DNA of 64,000 nt. Origin: Escherichia phage JSE. Shown in pieces: positions 787 through 25,535 of this stretch. Positions within the stretch are counted from its first letter, which is position 1; each line of letters starts with the position of its first letter. Position numbers and translations under genes: made by a program. The notes under the pieces were generated by a model. It had not been told where the DNA came from, searched no databases, and saw nothing but the letters and a program-made list of their open reading frames with translations. The stretch lies in the sequence record EU863408. One strand, written 5' to 3'.

Positions 787-1251
787 TTAACCGATTTTAT
801 CAAGTTCGTTTAATGCTTTCTCTGCTTCCTGTATAGCTTGCACCCTTTCCGGCATTTTGTCAAGAAAATCTTTCAACTCTTCAAAACTGGAGATATGACG
901 CAAGGCGTTAGCACCGATAGCCGCATGTGATTTGCATTCAAAGCGGATTTTATAATTATCCATCGCCAATTTGAGAAGATCAATTAATTTAGATTCTTCT
1001 GGAATAATAATTTCTTCAAATCTGCTACGGTCATGATCCAGAAACCAACAAGATAGACCTACATCGGTTGAACTCATATAAGTTCCATCATGAAGATAAA
1101 CAGACCGCACGTATCCTTTTTTCGCATCAACCGACGCAACTTTAAACGGTAATCTCAGATATTTCAAATAATCAACATCATACCATTTAAAAAATTGGTT
1201 TGCATCTTTTACATCTTTCCACGCATAGGTCTTACCAACTTCCCATTTCAT
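787..1251 (-). CDS. Paralog family A protein (N-terminal MKWEVGKTY, PFKV...DGTY beta module, C-terminal helical region)
   Basis: ORF track 787..1266; start moved to ATG 1251 which follows the stop of the upstream gene; shares motifs with 1..774, 1256..1783 and 6382..9020 genes. Confidence 0.55.
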   Translation of the reverse strand: MKWEVGKTYAWKDVKDANQFFKWYDVDYLKYLRLPFKVASVDAKKGYVRSVYLHDGTYMSSTDVGLSCWFLDHDRSRFEEIIIPEESKLIDLLKLAMDNYKIRFECKSHAAIGANALRHISSFEELKDFLDKMPERVQAIQEAEKALNELDKIG

Positions 1252-1793: not shown

Positions 1794-2297
1794 TCAAATA
1801 ATTTTCACTGGAATACTATTAACAATCTTGTATTGTACTTGATTGTCAGACCCCCGCCACGGCTTCTTCGTTGGCATATCTTTAATATAACGCCCATCGA
1901 TGAACATGTCAACTGATTCTACAATTTTTCTTTGCTCATCATTCAATTGGTCAAGGGTATAACCGGACCATAGCCAAATATCTTTATTTGGCATCCATGA
2001 TTTTACTTCATCGATGATCCGCTGTACACCCTTTAAATTGCGTTTATACAACGGATCACCACCTAAGAATGTTAGCCCCTGAATAAAATCAGGTCTAAGC
2101 AGATCCAGAATCAATCCCATTGTATCATCGGTGAATGGTTCCCCGTTCTTAGGATTGAGTAGGCTAGCATTAAAGCAACCATCACATGCGTGTGAACATC
2201 CGGTAACGTAAAGGGAGACTCTCACTCCCTCACCGTTAACCATATCACAATCTTTAATATCGGCATAGCGTAGTTTGCCGTATGTATCAGAACTCAT
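1794..2297 (-). CDS. nrdG: Anaerobic ribonucleotide reductase activating protein NrdG (radical SAM-type activase)
   Basis: GCSHACDGCFN cysteine cluster and GGDPL motif as in T4 NrdG; ~167 aa; directly downstream of nrdD as in T4. Confidence 0.85.
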   Translation of the reverse strand: MSSDTYGKLRYADIKDCDMVNGEGVRVSLYVTGCSHACDGCFNASLLNPKNGEPFTDDTMGLILDLLRPDFIQGLTFLGGDPLYKRNLKGVQRIIDEVKSWMPNKDIWLWSGYTLDQLNDEQRKIVESVDMFIDGRYIKDMPTKKPWRGSDNQVQYKIVNSIPVKII

Positions 2298-2439
2298 ATT
2301 CAATTACCCCGAACTCGTTTACAATCTGCGCTTTATAGTAACCACCGCGAGATGCTAATAGATAAGCTGGGCTTAGGTATTCGTATTCACGGATTTCTAC
2401 TTGTGCGTTTTCAGTTTCCCAAATCAGTAAAGTCCACAT
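2287..2439 (-). CDS. Small hypothetical protein (~50 aa)
   Basis: ATG at 2439 preceded by CAGGAGAATCAAAT leader and promoter cassette; longer ORF-track start runs through the promoter. Confidence 0.4.
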   Translation of the reverse strand: MWTLLIWETENAQVEIREYEYLSPAYLLASRGGYYKAQIVNEFGVIEYEF

Positions 2440-3714: not shown

Positions 3715-4707
3715 TTACATGTGCTTAACGCGGTTTACCATCTCGGAGTGTTTCCCGTGGTTAAATGGACGCAGATCAACAGATCCAAGATATCCACTAA
3801 CGCGACGGATAACATTCATCTTTTCCAGATTGTCATTTCCGCAATCAGGGCAAACAAAACCAGACTCGGTCGCTCTCATTTCCTTATTAGATCCGCATAC
3901 ATGACATACATCAGAAGGAGTATTAACACCGAAGTAGTGCAATTTATCCATTGCATAGTCTACTACAGTTTCAAGACCTTTCAGGTTGTTTTTCATGTCT
4001 GGGAACTCAACATAAGAGATCATGCCACCGGACGCCAGCCAGTGATAATCTTTCTCAAAGTCGATTTTCTCAAATGGTGTGACTTTCCGGTCTACGTCAA
4101 GGTGGAATGAGTTGGTGTACCAGTCTTTATCGGTAGCACCCTTAACAATACCAAATTGCTCTCTGTCCAGTCGATTAAATCGATAGCAAAGGCTCTCGGC
4201 TGGCGTACCGTAAAGACTAAACCCAAGTCCGGTTTCGTCCTTCCATTTTTCAGTATAATGACGCAAGATCTTAAGAATATGTTTACCGTATCGCTGCGCA
4301 TCTTCCGAATCAAACGGATGAACACCAAACAGGACGCTCAATACCTCATGTAAACCAATATATCCAAGAGAGATACTAGCGCGACCATCTTTCAGCACTT
4401 CCAAAATTTCATCGTTTTGATGAATACGGAAAAATGCACCTTCTGTATACAGTACAGGAGCAACATTGGCTTTAGCCCCTTTTAAAGCGTCTACGCGACT
4501 CATAAGCGCATCAAAGCAAATAGGCATACGATTAGCTAGCTCTTGTTCGAATAGCTCAATTCTGCGCATTACAGACGCTTTACCAGCACGACGCGCGGCA
4601 ATAAGAGCAATACGCGGAAGATTCAGAGTCACAACACCCAAGTTATTACGTCCGTCTAATACTTCCTCGCCTTTCTCGTTATGCCACACACCCAGGAAAC
4701 TTCTACA
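3715..4707 (-). CDS. nrdD: Anaerobic ribonucleoside-triphosphate reductase NrdD, exon 2 (C-terminal half)
   Basis: Begins CRSFLGVW...; C-terminal RRVSGYLGS glycyl-radical motif and CHVCG...CPDCG zinc site; ORF-track ATG at 4708-4710 reinterpreted as intron 3' end. Confidence 0.8.
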   Translation of the reverse strand, partial: CRSFLGVWHNEKGEEVLDGRNNLGVVTLNLPRIALIAARRAGKASVMRRIELFEQELANRMPICFDALMSRVDALKGAKANVAPVLYTEGAFFRIHQNDEILEVLKDGRASISLGYIGLHEVLSVLFGVHPFDSEDAQRYGKHILKILRHYTEKWKDETGLGFSLYGTPAESLCYRFNRLDREQFGIVKGATDKDWYTNSFHLDVDRKVTPFEKIDFEKDYHWLASGGMISYVEFPDMKNNLKGLETVVDYAMDKLHYFGVNTPSDVCHVCGSNKEMRATESGFVCPDCGNDNLEKMNVIRRVSGYLGSVDLRPFNHGKHSEMVNRVKHM

Positions 4708-5467
4708 CATTATTTGTTCAGGGTAGGTCGCTAATCTACCCCCGCCTTTCGGCTGCTACATGTCGCCATGCAGATCAGACTATATCTTCTATCTTTCGAT
4801 AGTCTACCATTTCGGATCGCTTGATCCTACGCCGCTACATTCATCACGGCTAGTCGTTAGGCATTTCATAGCGGAACTCATATTCATAAGTATTGGTTTT
4901 TCTACCATCAAGAATTGCAGATACATTTTTACGATGCAAGCCCAATGTTTCAGAAAGACTTCTCACGCTTTTAAATGTCTGCTCTTGTCCGGTTTCTTTA
5001 TGGATCGCAGTAACCTTATATGAACGACGTTTGAACTTATAGCACCCGTTTTCGTAACCTTCTTTCGTGTTTTCGCTGTTAGTCCCCCACTCAAGGTTAG
5101 ATGCATCGTTTATAGTTTTATCGTCGTTTTTATGTTTCACATATCGATAGCCGTTAGGATTCGGAATCCAACATTCAGCCACAATAACATGAACACGCAA
5201 ACATAAAGGTTTCTTGTCTCTCCTTACCCTTACTAATGTATATCCGGTATTGTTTTCTATCCAGGTACTCAACTGTTTACCTTTAGGAGAAAACACCCGT
5301 CCATCTTTCGATACCATATATTCGGTATCACGAATTTTTCTAAGTTCCATAATATATCCTCTTATACACATTGGCGTAAAGAGAATATGACCGCTATGTT
5401 TAGCACGGGATTGTCTTCTAGAGAGTTCCCCCGTTTAGGCAGATTTTAGATGAGCTGTTTAAAGTTT
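4708..5467 (-). mobile_element. Group I self-splicing intron (T4 td/nrdD-like core) in nrdD carrying an HNH endonuclease ORF
   Basis: 760 nt between NrdD halves; 5' segment AAUCUGCCUAAACGGGGGAACUCUCUAGAAGACAAUCCCGUGCUAAA and 3' segment with AGAUAUAGUCUG resemble T4 group I intron core; exon 1 ends in U, intron ends in G. Confidence 0.75.
4850..5350 (-). CDS. Intron-encoded HNH homing endonuclease (166 aa)
   Basis: HVIVAECWIPNPNGYRYVKHKNDDKTINDASNLEWGT HNH motif; ATG 5350 with AAGAGGA RBS; located inside intron. Confidence 0.8.
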   Translation of the reverse strand: MELRKIRDTEYMVSKDGRVFSPKGKQLSTWIENNTGYTLVRVRRDKKPLCLRVHVIVAECWIPNPNGYRYVKHKNDDKTINDASNLEWGTNSENTKEGYENGCYKFKRRSYKVTAIHKETGQEQTFKSVRSLSETLGLHRKNVSAILDGRKTNTYEYEFRYEMPND

Positions 5468-6337
5468 ACCCATCGGGCTAACCGGAACACTAGATCCAGT
5501 GATGCTACGGTTATTCTTCGCAGAGATATAATCAGGGTAAAGACGCTTACTAGAACATTCCAATGCAAGTTGCTTAATGTCGTAGTTCGGATCTTCCGGT
5601 TTAAGGTTTAATCCTTCTTCTAAGAACATCACCAGCTTAGGAAACACCGGAGTTATACCGTCTTTACCTAAACCTTTAGTTCGAACTTTCAGGATCGCTT
5701 TCTGAATCAGTTTTTCTTCCCAGCTAGTACCCATACCAAAGGTTAAAGTCACAAAAGGTGTTTGACCGTTGGTAGAGAACAAAGTGTTGATCTCATATTC
5801 CAACGCCTGATATCCGTCTAACGTTTCTTTTTCTGTTTTCTCTTGTGCATAGAGAGTATCAGCTTTGATTCCGTAGGTTTCGGCATCAGCAAGGTGTTTA
5901 TGATATGTTTTCTTAACATACGGCGCTAACACCTGGTCGATGTTTGCAATTGTGGTCCCGCCATATTGATGACTTGCCACCTGTGCGATAATTTGAGCGG
6001 TTACAGCACATGCAACACCGATCGATTTAGGACTTTCGATTTGTGCGCTACCCAATTTAAAACCATTCTCTAACATGTCTTTGAGATTAACAAGACAGCA
6101 GTTAGTAAACGGCATAGCTGGTGCATAATCCATATCATGATAATGAATATCACCGTCTACATGCGCTTTATAGATGTGCTCAGGTAACACGGTTTTAGCA
6201 ATATGTTTAGACACAGCGCCAGCAATCAGATCTCGACGTGTCGGGAATGTTCGCGCGTCTTTGTTCGCGTTCTCTTTGCTTACTTCGTTTTCTTTACCCG
6301 TTGCGATCTCTGTAATGTCTTTGATTAGTTTTTCCAT
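5468..6337 (-). CDS. nrdD: Anaerobic ribonucleoside-triphosphate reductase NrdD, exon 1 (N-terminal 290 aa)
   Basis: ATG 6337 with AGGTGA RBS; ends ...VPVSPMG; ORF-track stop 5459-5461 lies inside the intron. Confidence 0.8.
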
Positions 6338-6934: not shown

Positions 6935-8109
6935 GCACTAACTTTTTTCTTTACTGCTTTCACCTTCTGGCGAATTACTCGAATCTCTTCGATCTCTTTT
7001 TCAGTCTCTTTAACAATTTCTTTGCGATTCTGAATATCTGTATCGAGATTATCATCAAGTTTAGGCAGCATGTCAATCAAGAACTTTTTAAAGTCTTTCA
7101 GGTTTCGGATAACAGCACCTTCACCCATTACCGCCACACCAACACCATCCGGCAGATCACCAAACAGTTTAACCAGTTCAGACAGATGATCATGGTCTTC
7201 TAATGCTTCCTCCGGTTCAGATGGCAGTTCAACAAAGTTATAACGTTCATCATTGCTGATCAAGTGATACCAGCAAAGCCCGAAAGATTTCGGTGTATAT
7301 TCTACACCATCAATTTCAACCGCGTCAACACTTCCATAATCATCTACTTTAGTTACCTTAAATCCTTGTCCCAGCTTTTGAACAATTTCAACAACATGAC
7401 TTGATACAGTTTCAGCGGTAAACCAATATGGCAAATTATGCTGATTTGGCTTGTAGCGTTCACCTACTTTAAATCTCTGACCATCCGCTTGCATAGCATG
7501 AAATTGTTGTTTCGTGATTTCCGCGAAGTATTCAAATTCGCCACCATCAAACACACAAGCCCATTGATCACAAAAACGATCTGCCTTAACAGTTTCACCT
7601 TTCGCGGTGATCATGGTAGCTGATCCGTGCAATTCTTCTTCAACTAAAAAGCCATATTCGACAAAATCAACAAGTTTCATAGCTTCTTTGTGATCTGGAT
7701 CATGCTCTCCCCAGAATCGCTTAAATTCTTGCAAACCTTCTGGTGTAAACGAATAACATTTACCTTTTTCAAAGTAAGTCGGCATTGCATCCTCTTTCTT
7801 GTTCATCGCTTCGTATGCCTCTTTTGAGATGCGTTTAAAGTATTTACGCTCATCGTGCATAATCATAGTAGCCCAATAATAAACGATATCCTCAGCGGAA
7901 TAAACTACATCTCCAGCTTCAATAGTAATAACATGACCGTTGTCATCTTTTTCTAATACTTTAAAGCCCTTTTCGACGATTTCAGCAACCCGAATATGAC
8001 CACGGCGCGAAGCATCGGTCAGAATAATTGAATAGCGAGAAAAGTCTAGAAACTCATCTTTACCACCTTCACGGAATGCATAGTAATGACCTTCAAAGAA
8101 TTTAGCCAT
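6931..8109 (-). CDS. Paralog family A protein (392 aa) with duplicated GFKV...ERKYFKRI module
   Basis: ATG 8109; motifs EKGFKVLEKDDNGHV...ERKYFKRISK and GQGFKVTKVDDYGSV. Confidence 0.55.
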   Translation of the reverse strand: MAKFFEGHYYAFREGGKDEFLDFSRYSIILTDASRRGHIRVAEIVEKGFKVLEKDDNGHVITIEAGDVVYSAEDIVYYWATMIMHDERKYFKRISKEAYEAMNKKEDAMPTYFEKGKCYSFTPEGLQEFKRFWGEHDPDHKEAMKLVDFVEYGFLVEEELHGSATMITAKGETVKADRFCDQWACVFDGGEFEYFAEITKQQFHAMQADGQRFKVGERYKPNQHNLPYWFTAETVSSHVVEIVQKLGQGFKVTKVDDYGSVDAVEIDGVEYTPKSFGLCWYHLISNDERYNFVELPSEPEEALEDHDHLSELVKLFGDLPDGVGVAVMGEGAVIRNLKDFKKFLIDMLPKLDDNLDTDIQNRKEIVKETEKEIEEIRVIRQKVKAVKKKVSA

Positions 8110-22548: not shown

Positions 22549-22569
22549 TTTCTTAATCTCCTATATTAA

Positions 22570-23268
22570 CTAACCACGGGTATAGTGTTCCAGAACAACG
22601 GTCAGATGAATATATTCTAATAGATCTTTCCAAAAGTCAACATCTGGTTCTTCCGGCATACCGTTTTTCTTTGCCTCTTCACGCGCGAGTTTAACACGCT
22701 CGTAGAGATCTTTCAATTCTTCCCGCACATTATCAAAGGTTCTTTCTCCTAACTTACACGCTAAAATAGAAGAACGTCGCGCGAGCGGGAATTGTAGATC
22801 ACCTGTCTGATAGATTTCAAGTAGCTGATAACCAACACGCAGAGCATGAGAAAGATCTTTCCAGTTACTGAAATACTTTTCAGATTTGGCTACCTGCTTT
22901 TTGAGATAGCCAGACAAACCCCACATACCAACATGATAGAATTTATCTCGATGTGTTCGGATGTATTCCCATTCTCTGGAGGATTCAACCAACATGTTAC
23001 TAGGCGCGTGCACCATATCAATAGCGCCGATATCGCCTTTACATGCCAGATTGATAAACCGTTTTAGACTGAACATATTAACGTCAATATCGTCTTTGGT
23101 GTTCTTGATCCCTTGACCGCTAGTGCTTTGATCATAGTGTTCTTTCATCGATCCTAAGATAATTTCTTTCGCAGTCGGAACAAAGATACCACGATAATCT
23201 TTATCGGAATTTTCAGTATCAAGGCCGTATAAGTGAGATCCGAAGACCATTTTAACCATTGTATGCAT
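22570..23268 (-). CDS. Pol-beta superfamily nucleotidyltransferase (232 aa) with C-terminal helical domain
   Basis: FGSHLYGLDTENSDKD matches GS-x10-DxD nucleotidyltransferase signature, third acidic DDIDV; GAGGGT RBS. Confidence 0.6.
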   Translation of the reverse strand: MHTMVKMVFGSHLYGLDTENSDKDYRGIFVPTAKEIILGSMKEHYDQSTSGQGIKNTKDDIDVNMFSLKRFINLACKGDIGAIDMVHAPSNMLVESSREWEYIRTHRDKFYHVGMWGLSGYLKKQVAKSEKYFSNWKDLSHALRVGYQLLEIYQTGDLQFPLARRSSILACKLGERTFDNVREELKDLYERVKLAREEAKKNGMPEEPDVDFWKDLLEYIHLTVVLEHYTRG

Positions 23269-23281
23269 AATTAAACCCTCA

Positions 23282-23812
23282 TTAGTATTTTACGTTACGT
23301 CGAACGCCTTTTCGAATCTGACAAATAGCAGACGGTGAAACATTATATTTTCTTGCAAGTTCTACACCCTTCATATGGGGAGAAGATAAAATCTCTTCCA
23401 CTTGGTCGTCGGTAAGTTTTGCGTTTCCGTGGTTCTCTCCCCAATTTTTGTTTAATCCTTCTTCCTTCGCATGAACAAGATTTCGGGTATCTGTCGTCCA
23501 TTCAAGATTATAAAGGTCATAGTTTTGTTTGTTTCCATCCTTATGATTAACTACACGGTAGTTATTTGGATTCGGAATAAACGCAACCGCCATAGCTTTA
23601 TGCATGTTCACGGTTTTTCTAAATCCATCCGGCTTATAACATACTGTAAATTTAGAATAACCAGTTTTACCATAAACACTAATATAATTTCCGGTCTCCG
23701 TATTTCTAACCCTACCATGAGAGCTAATCTCAAATTGAGTGTAGGGCAACAGCGCATCAATCACTTTCCATTCTTCGACAGGATGGTCATCACAATATCT
23801 TTTAATCATCAT
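23282..23812 (-). CDS. Free-standing HNH homing endonuclease with C-terminal HTH
   Basis: FIPNPNNYRVVNHKDGNKQNYDLYNLEWTT HNH motif; C-terminal LTDDQVEEIL...ARKYNVSPSAICQIRKG helix-turn-helix. Confidence 0.8.
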   Translation of the reverse strand: MMIKRYCDDHPVEEWKVIDALLPYTQFEISSHGRVRNTETGNYISVYGKTGYSKFTVCYKPDGFRKTVNMHKAMAVAFIPNPNNYRVVNHKDGNKQNYDLYNLEWTTDTRNLVHAKEEGLNKNWGENHGNAKLTDDQVEEILSSPHMKGVELARKYNVSPSAICQIRKGVRRNVKY

Positions 23813-23830
23813 ATCACCTCATAAAAATAA

Positions 23831-23852
23831 AGCCAACCCTTTCGGATTGGCT
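23831..23852 (-). terminator. Terminator after grcA (AGCCAAUCC-GAAA-GGGUUGGCU + U-rich tail)
   Basis: GNRA hairpin with wobble, followed by UUAUUUUUAU. Confidence 0.6.
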
Positions 23853-23859
23853 TAAAAAT

Positions 23860-24276
23860 TTACATTGCTTCCGTAAAGGTGCGCGAAATAACGTCACGTT
23901 GTTGGTCTGGAGTCAGACTATTGAATCTTACGGCATATCCGCTAACGCGAATGGTTAGTTGCGGATACTTATCAGGATTAGCAACCGCATCGAGAAGAAG
24001 ATCGCGACTCATAACATTGATATTAGCGTGCTGACCACCTTCGACAACCGGAGCACCATTATCTACAATCACCGGACGGAAGCTAGTTGTGTGCAGTGCC
24101 AGAGAATCGACGTCTTCTGCGGTGATCACATGGTCTTCTGCGAAAGTTTTACTAACAATTACTTTAGCGCCGATCAGTGCTTTCGGTTCGGATACCAGAA
24201 TCATAGGCGCGAAGTGTCCACCAATAATAGTACCTTTATGCTCACCTTTCATGATTTGAATTGCTTTAAATTCCAT
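23860..24276 (-). CDS. grcA: Autonomous glycyl radical cofactor GrcA (YfiD-like)
   Basis: C-terminal GGQHANINV...[36 protein letters not shown] nearly matches E. coli GrcA as recalled (RVSGYAV glycyl-radical loop); AAGAGGTGA RBS. Confidence 0.9.
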
Positions 24277-24411
24277 AATTCACCTCTTATAGATCAGGAC
24301 GTTCGTCATTAATTTTACCAACCAAAACACCATAGAGTTTATCAGGTTGGACTTTACGATTCTTTTTAATTGTAGCACGGAATCGACGAGCTACGCTATC
24401 TTTATTTTTCA

Positions 24412-24897
24412 TTAGTTGATACCTAAGCCAATGAAAATAGGTTGGTCTTCTACATTACCCATCCCAACACTAAGTCGATTCAATTCTAAAAACTGCAATA
24501 CGCTGTCAGTAAATCCGCGCATGGTAGTATCTAGGATAAAAATTGTTTTGTCAAGACTACGACCTCGCCATGTGATCGGATTCAGGAAAGTTCGGATAGA
24601 TGTACAATCTACATCTGAAATATTTACATTTTCACCGCGACCGCGATCTCGGATCGTTTTGGCATGTTCCCGCGTCGTTGAAACGATAAAGACACTATAG
24701 CCTTTTCGCGTATAATGGTCATATAACTTGATTGTAGCGTCTGTATGCCCTGTCTGACGGCCTAAATTGATTGAGACGATGGAATCTAGGTCATCAGCAA
24801 AATTGCGTCGCTTACGGCGTTCTATGATGCCATTTACGGCAGATACACACGCAGCATAAATCAAATCTTTACTTTCTAATTTTACATCAATATTCAT
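24412..24897 (-). CDS. Hypothetical protein (161 aa), possible degenerate P-loop (GRQTGHT)
   Basis: ORF with GGAGAC RBS; weak P-loop-like and hhhhD motifs only. Confidence 0.4.
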   Translation of the reverse strand: MNIDVKLESKDLIYAACVSAVNGIIERRKRRNFADDLDSIVSINLGRQTGHTDATIKLYDHYTRKGYSVFIVSTTREHAKTIRDRGRGENVNISDVDCTSIRTFLNPITWRGRSLDKTIFILDTTMRGFTDSVLQFLELNRLSVGMGNVEDQPIFIGLGIN

Positions 24898-24959
24898 GGT
24901 AAAGTCTCCAGTGAACGGGGAGAGATCCTTAGATTGTCTCCCCGTTGATGGTTAATATT

Positions 24960-25535
24960 TTATTTTGGATCTGGGAAATTCAATAGAGCATATTCTCCAT
25001 AAAATTTCCTAGCTGCATTATCATAAGCGATTGCAGCTTCGATTTCTGTGTCATATTGTCCAAGAACATGTCTTTGTAGGTTGACCATTATACTAGCTCT
25101 CCATTTCTTACGCAAATCCTTCCTGTTACACTTACTAACACCCTTATACACACTAGAAAACTTTTTAGACTTCTTCTTTCTATTATGTTGATTTTGCGCG
25201 TCGGTTGCCTCCCTAAGATTTGGAGGATTGTTATTAGCAGGATTACCGTCAATATGATCAATTAATCTAACTTGCGTCCCATGTTCTAGAAACCAAACAA
25301 CCCTATGCACGAATAGATGAACTCTAGGAAGACCGTCATCTCTACTATGCCAAAATCTAAGATGACCATCTTTATTTGTTCTGACTTTAACTAAATCGCC
25401 GTGTTTATATCTACTCCCTAATGGTCGTCCTTTGATAGCTTTACTATCGACTCTATAATATAAGATACCCTCTATATGAGCATATCTAAGTTTTATCTCG
25501 TTTTGTAGGGATTCATCCCAATATTTAAAAGCCAT
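24960..25535 (-). CDS. HNH endonuclease fused to AP2 DNA-binding domain
   Basis: HRVVWFLEHG...IDHIDGNPANNNPPNLREAT HNH motif and C-terminal YKGVSK...WRASI...YDNAARKFYGEYA AP2-like segment. Confidence 0.75.
   Translation of the reverse strand: MAFKYWDESLQNEIKLRYAHIEGILYYRVDSKAIKGRPLGSRYKHGDLVKVRTNKDGHLRFWHSRDDGLPRVHLFVHRVVWFLEHGTQVRLIDHIDGNPANNNPPNLREATDAQNQHNRKKKSKKFSSVYKGVSKCNRKDLRKKWRASIMVNLQRHVLGQYDTEIEAAIAYDNAARKFYGEYALLNFPDPK

Follow-up and report, generated by a model that had tools for sequence, protein, structure and literature searches.

A probable pyruvate formate-lyase spare part of old phage lineage in Escherichia phage JSE, with a 3' module that appears linked to a homing-endonuclease gene

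The closest described relatives of the gene analysed here are Y06I, the product of vs.6 of phage T4, and YfiD (GrcA) of E. coli. Both receive a radical from the activase of pyruvate formate-lyase (PFL) and restore oxygen-cleaved PFL in vitro (Wagner et al. 2001, PMID 11444864, as summarised in PMC8683613; the result is also cited in PMC13450708 and PMC12338860), and the account in PMC8683613 gives radical installation and PFL rescue for these two proteins only. In YfiD, residues 61-127 adopt the fold of PFL residues 693-759, and residues 1-60, which are disordered, contribute to the binding of cleaved PFL and to installation of the radical, but not to catalysis. In an early comparison of six T4-like genomes, the vs.6 of each was already seen to contain the Gly_radical domain (PMC1524935), and RefSeq names the T4 protein (NP_049730) "autonomous glycyl radical cofactor GrcA". 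For phage grcA/vs.6, the literature was also searched for phenotypes in vivo, and no relevant account came up. The second system that bears on this locus is intronless homing, in which a free-standing endonuclease cleaves at a site distant from its insertion site and the flank is co-converted, as established for T4-type phages (PMC2988022).

The window, by which we mean the whole stretch of 64,000 nucleotides of Escherichia phage JSE (EU863408) that was analysed, belongs by megablast to Krischvirus, the RB49/Phi1-like T4-type coliphages, with Whisky and vB_EcoM_011D4 as its closest records (98.8%). The initial annotation had placed a stand-alone GrcA-like glycyl-radical protein at 23860..24276, and we confirm it: the minus strand carries there an open reading frame of 138 codons plus stop, starting with ATG, which contains a Gly_radical domain and whose translation includes the quoted peptides exactly, GGQHANINV among them. 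The gene order around it reads tk.4, vs, vs.1, regB, ..., nrdC.11, an HNH open reading frame, our gene, a 41-aa open reading frame, vs.8 and an M15 peptidase gene, and agrees with that of Phi1 and kaaroe, the endonuclease gene aside. Phi1 is annotated with vs.8, ORF100 and vs.6 in that order, its vs.6 being the counterpart of the window gene, and in T4 the genes vs.8 and vs.7 have vs.6 immediately downstream. The match to PHROG 1209 is full-length (E 3e-48, residues 3-138 on profile positions 1-121 of 121), and the identity to T4 Vs.6, 52%, includes two N-terminal motifs, KA.QI..G.HKGTI and IVSKTF.ED, that bacterial GrcA proteins do not have. Judged by position and sequence, the window gene is the syntenic ortholog of T4 vs.6 (Y06I) and encodes a predicted stand-alone glycyl-radical protein of the GrcA/YfiD kind (TIGR04365, IPR011140).

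The expression signals of its own that had been reported for the gene are present. A Shine-Dalgarno sequence, AAGAGGTG, can be read at 24281..24288 (minus strand), 4 nt before the ATG, sharing bases with the stop codon of the 41-aa open reading frame upstream. This frame (24287..24412, minus) is situated between vs.6 and vs.8 (24412..24897, minus), the two upstream genes matching PHROG 1488 / 13848. The three genes are tightly packed with no terminator in between, and vs.6 probably shares a transcript with vs.8 and the 41-aa frame, a co-transcription that we infer from this arrangement. Downstream of the vs.6 stop codon, on the same strand, lies an intrinsic terminator hairpin (23830..23853), AAGCCAAUCC-GAAA-GGGUUGGCUU followed by UAUUUUUAU, that is, a 10-bp stem, a GAAA loop and a U-rich tail, with a dG of -17.2 kcal/mol and a z of -4.0. 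Sister phages likewise have an annotated terminator at this position. No Rfam family matched anywhere in the window at gathering thresholds.

Genes of this type are common. By tblastn, homologs were found in 1,578 phage records, many of them already annotated as GrcA or "pyruvate formate-lyase", and they come from phages of the T4-like, T5-like and jumbo kinds whose hosts include Escherichia, Salmonella, Klebsiella and Aeromonas. A GrcA-like gene in Krischvirus is thus already known: it is widespread, annotated in sister genomes and ordinary for the phage group. With some 1,600 sequenced phages carrying a vs.6-type gene, and with the T4-type protein known and biochemically characterised since 2001, the finding as the initial annotation stated it is of little consequence.

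Profile and database searches agree on what the protein resembles and where. In a search of 5.8 billion proteins the nearest were all of the phage type, 131-138 aa long, and bacterial GrcAs came in at only about 60% identity, covering about 70% of the query. Pfam Gly_radical matches residues 78-119 with 56.5 bits (cutoff 22.2), and among solved structures E. coli YfiD/GrcA (6owr, E 6e-29) comes first, with PflB (E 9e-26) next. The NCBI equivalog model for GrcA (TIGR04365) gives the window protein 127.4 bits, below its cutoff of 170, and matches only residues 37-138; E. coli GrcA scores 234. Since the validated T4 protein also falls below the cutoff (151.1 bits, and the kaaroe ortholog 133.8), the low score is weak evidence, which reflects the phage-type N-terminal half and is no argument against a GrcA-like function.

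The protein has two parts. Codons 1-77 (24046..24276, minus strand) form, by alignment, a phage-type N-terminal half (KAIQI..G.HKGTI ... IVSKTFAED), and codons 78-138 (23863..24045, minus) a glycyl radical domain (PF01228) with a beta strand, the RVSG113YAV loop and, at the C-terminus, a helix, corresponding to PflB 700-760 and GrcA 67-127. The RVSGYAV glycyl-radical loop that had been noted is therefore there, and its predicted radical-bearing glycine is Gly113, encoded at 23938..23940 (minus strand; plus-strand tcc, minus-strand GGA) between Ser112 (AGC) and Tyr114 (TAT), in a column where glycine is invariant in all three family alignments. Moreover, each of the 22 columns invariant across 119 family members (22/22) is present in the window protein, namely H83, N85, N87, L94, A97, P101, Y104, L107, T108, R110, S112, G113, Y114, R117, L121, T122, Q125, D128 and R132-T135.

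To describe the protein as "almost identical" to E. coli GrcA, as had been done, is right about a strong likeness and a core of 23 identical residues around G113, but overstated: alignment gives 47 of 61 residues (77%) in the C-terminal domain and 58% over the 104 residues that align overall, residues 1-36 finding no alignment at all. The C-terminal 61 residues are nearly as similar to PflB (46/61, 75%, over PflB 700-760) and to TdcE (45/61), and several positions are PflB-like rather than GrcA-like (NVM, LLDA, NP and the terminal M). The term "host-like" does not hold for the whole protein, only these 61 residues resembling host proteins and the N-terminal half being of the Vs.6 type. An AlphaFold model built with the family alignment as input (mean pLDDT 77.9; 80-92 over residues 91-138) has the C-terminal strand-loop-strand-helix layout of glycyl radical domains. 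In Foldseek the NMR structure of YfiD is the top PDB match (TM 0.76 on the target), and the domains of glycyl radical enzymes fit the model with an rmsd of 0.7-0.9 A across some 42 residues. For the N-terminal half the model shows short strands (pLDDT 57-84), and the fold search returned no match there, every significant match falling within the C-terminal domain.

Set beside the described systems, the window protein is closest to T4 Vs.6, with which it shares the slot downstream of vs.8, the N-terminal motifs, the C-terminal RVSGYAV domain, the small stand-alone format and membership of PHROG 1209. It differs in length (138 aa against 120 aa in T4), owing to N-terminal insertions, with 52% identity overall, and in that the T4 protein has been tested biochemically whereas the function of the Krischvirus protein is a predicted one. 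The insertion relative to T4 Vs.6 amounts in the alignments to about 18 residues of the N-terminal half. Compared with E. coli GrcA/YfiD (P68066; 6owr), it is likewise a stand-alone glycyl radical domain with a predicted fold that fits the NMR structure; however, the two proteins have little in common in the N-terminal half, the window protein lacks the bacterial motif GIQIT...SFWLLD, and while grcA is a stress-induced chromosomal gene, the window gene is phage-encoded and sits in an early or middle cluster. Unlike PflB and TdcE, the 138-aa Vs.6 has neither the 10-stranded barrel nor the catalytic cysteines and could act only in trans on a damaged enzyme. Against reading it as a part for PFL one can place three observations: an identity to T4 Vs.6 of only 52%, the longer N-terminal half (by about 18 residues) and the TIGR04365 score below the cutoff.

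For the Krischvirus protein we infer a mechanism by orthology with Y06I. Probably co-transcribed with vs.8, translated from its own ribosome-binding site and ending at the intrinsic terminator, vs.6 would yield a protein whose C-terminal 61 residues are predicted to reproduce the glycyl radical domain of host PflB, with its beta strand, RVSG113YAV loop and terminal helix. When oxygen cleaves the activated host PflB at Gly734, Vs.6 would dock on the cleaved enzyme, and host PflA, the radical SAM activase, would place a radical on Gly113. This radical would feed Cys419 of PflB, and pyruvate could again be converted into acetyl-CoA plus formate. On the model of YfiD residues 1-60, the phage-specific N-terminal half may serve in binding and activation and not in catalysis. 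As to why a phage should bring its own copy, we propose that host shut-off by T4-type phages leaves the cell unable to induce grcA, because host expression is blocked, and that the phage copy would keep fermentative energy and acetyl-CoA available during micro-oxic infection. The gene had been called an auxiliary metabolic gene for low oxygen, probably captured from the host. A role of this kind under micro-oxic conditions is reasonable, given that the T4 ortholog restores oxygen-cleaved PFL; the capture is another matter, as set out below.

The 3' part of vs.6 has a history different from that of its surroundings. Identity between the window and sister Krischviruses was followed along bins of 50 nt. 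The flanks (22550..23268 and 24050..24900) are 96-100% identical in nucleotide sequence to kaaroe and Phi1, the nrdC.11 side being 97-100% identical, whereas 23800..24050 reaches only 70-81%. The divergent, apparently recombinant patch can be placed at 23813..24030 (minus strand) and comprises the terminator, intergenic DNA and the last 170-190 nt or so of vs.6. In vs.6 itself, the nucleotide identity to kaaroe is 99.6% for codons 1-77 (dS 0.019) and only 73% for codons 78-138 (dS 1.58), where dN/dS nevertheless stays at about 0.10, a sign that the domain is conserved. The break in identity, from 99.6% to 73%, is sharp. It falls at about nt 247 of the gene (about 24030 in the window), coincides in the window phage with the start of the conserved domain (EGGQH), and the divergence runs from there up to the point where the endonuclease gene is inserted. 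Among sister alleles, that of P0013 has unusual residues at otherwise conserved positions (RISGYAT and NAGHH).

Abutting this patch is a free-standing homing-endonuclease gene of the HNH/NUMOD4 type (176 aa, 23282..23812, minus strand; Pfam HNH_3 and NUMOD4; PHROG 59, E 1e-36), a 531-nt insertion between vs.6 and nrdC.11. T4 MobD, whose gene adjoins nrdC.11 in T4, was considered as its identity and rejected for want of any similarity. The gene is present in three of the 57 phage records that match the region, namely Whisky and 011D4 (99%) and, in diverged form, phiS, and absent from kaaroe, Phi1, RB49, KFS-EC, G2248 and most other Krischviruses. Among the phage records listed by megablast, those whose match begins only at about 23807 of the window do not have it, and the RB49-type records that were checked residue by residue (kaaroe and Phi1) are among this endonuclease-less set. 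All seven endonuclease-bearing relatives examined (Whisky, 011D4, phiS, L091, L092, L093 and L094) carry vs.6 alleles that are not of the RB49 type. In phiS a related endonuclease is accompanied by its own 3' allele of vs.6, in the metagenomic contig L091 a related endonuclease by yet another, and in contigs L092, L093 and L094 an unrelated NUMOD4/HNH open reading frame of 197/198 aa occupies the same junction with its own type of allele. The one-sided pattern of divergence recurs in L091, L092 and phiS. These alleles suggest co-conversion associated with homing. Like the free-standing seg and mob endonucleases of T4-type phages, the window gene is an intergenic HNH/NUMOD frame that is present or absent among near-identical genomes, and like the products of intronless homing the divergent tract is one-sided and extends into the adjacent conserved gene. 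It differs in that the allele of the immune type also exists without an endonuclease gene, and in that the enzyme itself is so far a predicted one, seen at the level of sequence.

For the origin of the 3' module we also looked to bacteria. The last 61 codons are 69% identical in nucleotide sequence to grcA and pflB of E. coli K-12 and 66% to tdcE, with a third-position identity of about 0.4 against the E. coli genes and saturated synonymous sites. The 5,426 complete E. coli genomes all match vs.6 at just 60-80% and only over its 3' 44%, the match to the C-terminal module, in pflB, amounting to only 70%. We took the 80 best protein matches from bacterial contigs in which each species is represented by a single genome. 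At the protein level the highest of them reach 80-81% identity (Yersinia, Neisseria, Haemophilus, Pasteurella), and none of these 80 loci exceeded 70% nucleotide identity to the window allele. In a sensitive blastn search of the phage collection, no phage other than those with the window allele came above 83%. No DNA donor of the module was thus found in the E. coli genomes, the K-12 grcA, pflB and tdcE genes, the 80 best bacterial loci or the phage collection. T4 offers a different picture: in its vs.6 the last 180 nt or so agree with E. coli K-12 grcA at 97%, with the same codon at 57 of 59 conserved residues, and the junction is sharp, at the EGGQH codons, where GC3 jumps from 0.19 to 0.41. 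The window module is 68-69% identical to both T4 vs.6 and grcA. Read from these sequences, the conversion of the module from host to phage is an event of T4 and not a recent one in the window phage.

Other functions and another origin can be proposed for vs.6. It had been suggested that the protein might service the phage's own anaerobic ribonucleotide reductase, that is, serve as a spare glycyl-radical domain for NrdD with NrdG as activase. The phage does carry both genes, as had been said, and both lie in the window: nrdG at 1794..2303 (minus strand; Fer4_12, E 2e-43, and Radical_SAM in Pfam; Phi1 has its nrdG in the corresponding region) and nrdD, the large subunit, at 3715..6337 (minus). 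NrdD is also cleaved by oxygen at its glycyl radical, and the phage NrdD loop reads RVSGY, as in Vs.6. But RVSGY is all that the C-terminal half of NrdD shares with Vs.6 (BLASTP E 0.96), while PflB is copied at 75% over the whole domain. In addition, that half of NrdD has a zinc-ribbon match (residues 268-292) before RVSGY (303-307) with no counterpart in Vs.6, T4 Y06I works with PFL and its activase (PFL-AE), and vs.6 lies about 17 kb from nrdDG with no co-transcription. Service to NrdD is thus very improbable, even though the early genome paper had speculated on a role in nucleotide metabolism (PMC1524935). A decoy function, in which Vs.6 would titrate away the PflA of the host or block its PFL and so stop fermentation, would account for the divergent N-terminal half and for the unusual residues of sister alleles such as that of P0013, but Y06I restores PFL activity in vitro and the window allele keeps every family-invariant residue, so that we consider this proposal scarcely credible. 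Recent capture of an enterobacterial grcA, which would make the window gene essentially a host gene, was part of the initial annotation. It draws on the 77% identity of the C-terminal domain to E. coli GrcA, on a GC content slightly raised over vs.6 (0.45-0.48 against about 0.39 in the flanks) and on T4, where transfer of a host module did occur. The nucleotide sequence speaks against it, with no more than 66-69% identity to grcA, pflB and tdcE, at most 70% to the 80 bacterial loci, and the same codon as E. coli at only 19 of the 47 conserved residues, as do the weak and partial matches in the 5,426 E. coli genomes, the phage-type N-terminal half and the synteny of vs.6 across T4-type phages. 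The proposed checks by identity and codon usage have therefore turned out against a recent capture, which we hold to be highly improbable; on this sequence evidence it is not supported, and vs.6 appears here as an old gene of the phage lineage. This corrects the origin given for the JSE gene.

How the present 3' module came to replace the RB49-type one is less settled, the alternative to homing being ordinary homeologous recombination with co-infecting phages or host glycyl-radical genes, with the conserved domain as anchor and the endonuclease as a coincidence. KFS-EC and FL15 have the window-type allele but no endonuclease gene, and G2248 and kvi, likewise lacking that gene, have chimeric alleles, which shows that the allele can exist and recombine independently. 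The break at the start of the conserved domain (EGGQH) also recalls the T4/grcA junction, where vs.6 has no adjoining endonuclease gene. On the other hand, all seven endonuclease-bearing loci are divergent, two unrelated HNH genes occupy one junction, each with its own set of alleles, and the tract is one-sided, running exactly from inside vs.6 to the endonuclease gene, which is the geometry of intronless homing. Recombination of the ordinary kind is, in our estimation, unlikely, if well short of negligible. The variably present endonuclease and the one-sided tract fit the homing geometry, so that the glycyl-radical coding sequence would be the homing target and the divergent tract a co-converted or cleavage-resistant allele, which most likely came in, or became fixed, along with the HNH gene. 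We put at roughly 0.75 the probability that vs.6 is a spare part for PFL, an old gene of the phage lineage, with a recombinant 3' module most likely tied to the adjacent HNH gene.

What this analysis adds, modestly, is a replacement of the glycyl-radical module that goes with an endonuclease gene. The functional module of vs.6 would then be a recombination hot spot linked to homing endonucleases, where the traffic of selfish elements reshapes an auxiliary metabolic gene. A broader and tentative proposal, possible but rather doubtful, is that the module serves, independently, as a homing target for at least two unrelated HNH families and that each replacement re-issues the spare part, from grcA in T4 and from deeply diverged donors here and in sister phages. 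Some versions of the module might be tuned to the PFL, TdcE or activases of other hosts, and the natural variants could serve to map the residues that are important for PFL rescue. Finally, the window nrdD carries an interruption of about 750 nt with an HNH open reading frame (4850..5371). Pfam NRDD is matched on both halves, which are 98-99% identical to the uninterrupted NrdD of Phi1, and the break is at ...SPMG|CRSF....

The 3' end of the T4 ortholog of vs.6, the gene for the GrcA-like glycyl-radical protein, was aligned with that of E. coli K-12 grcA. Over the last ~180 nt (7558..7740 of the T4 locus, L003, and 1067..1250 of the grcA locus, L004) the two genes share 97% nucleotide identity, and the same codon is used at 57 of the 59 conserved residues. 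The similarity has a sharp junction at the codons for EGGQH, where the conserved glycyl-radical domain starts, and none was found downstream of the stop codon when the two loci were compared there. GC3 within T4 vs.6 is 0.41 in the grcA-like 3' part vs 0.19 in the upstream part. T4 vs.6 looks, from its sequence, like a phage/host chimera produced by recent gene conversion.

The junction between vs.6 and nrdC.11, which in the window holds an HNH/NUMOD4 endonuclease gene (23282..23812, minus strand), is occupied in three Krischvirus-like metagenomic contigs by an unrelated NUMOD4/HNH ORF of 197/198 aa (L092, 3466..4059; L093, 2963..3556; L094, 2965..3561). The vs.6 alleles of these contigs each carry unusual loop residues, and in the sister allele P0013 EGGQH is even replaced by NAGHH. 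The endonuclease ORF of the window has its own ribosome-binding site (GAGGTG), and directly upstream of it, overlapping the stem of the vs.6 terminator, lies a sigma-70-like promoter match (23808..23836, minus strand; TTGGCT, 17-nt spacer, TATGAT, extended TG). This predicted promoter may drive expression of the endonuclease independently of read-through.

Beyond vs.8, between this gene and that of the M15 peptidase, a third endonuclease-like ORF can be found (24960..25535, minus strand), with HNH_3 and AP2 domains and assigned to PHROG 99. It is present in phages Whisky, phiS and G2248 and missing from Phi1, kaaroe and KFS-EC. Endonuclease genes are therefore variably present on both sides of the vs.8-vs.6 block, which in the window phage is bracketed by two of them.

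The nrdD gene (3715..6337, minus strand) is itself interrupted: an insert of ~750 nt splits it at the conserved cysteine loop, between the codons for ...SPMG and CRSF..., and the nrdD of Phi1 is uninterrupted. The insert contains an HNH/I-HmuI-like ORF (4850..5371) and, at 4756..4983, a match to the Rfam group I intron model (27.4 bits, E 1.3e-4) that falls below the gathering score of 50. The interruption is probably due either to a mobile group I intron that encodes its own endonuclease or to a genes-in-pieces arrangement. In the C-terminal half of NrdD (3715..4710, minus strand) the glycyl loop, at residues 303-307, reads RVSGYLG; NrdD of E. coli and T4 has RVCGY at the corresponding position.
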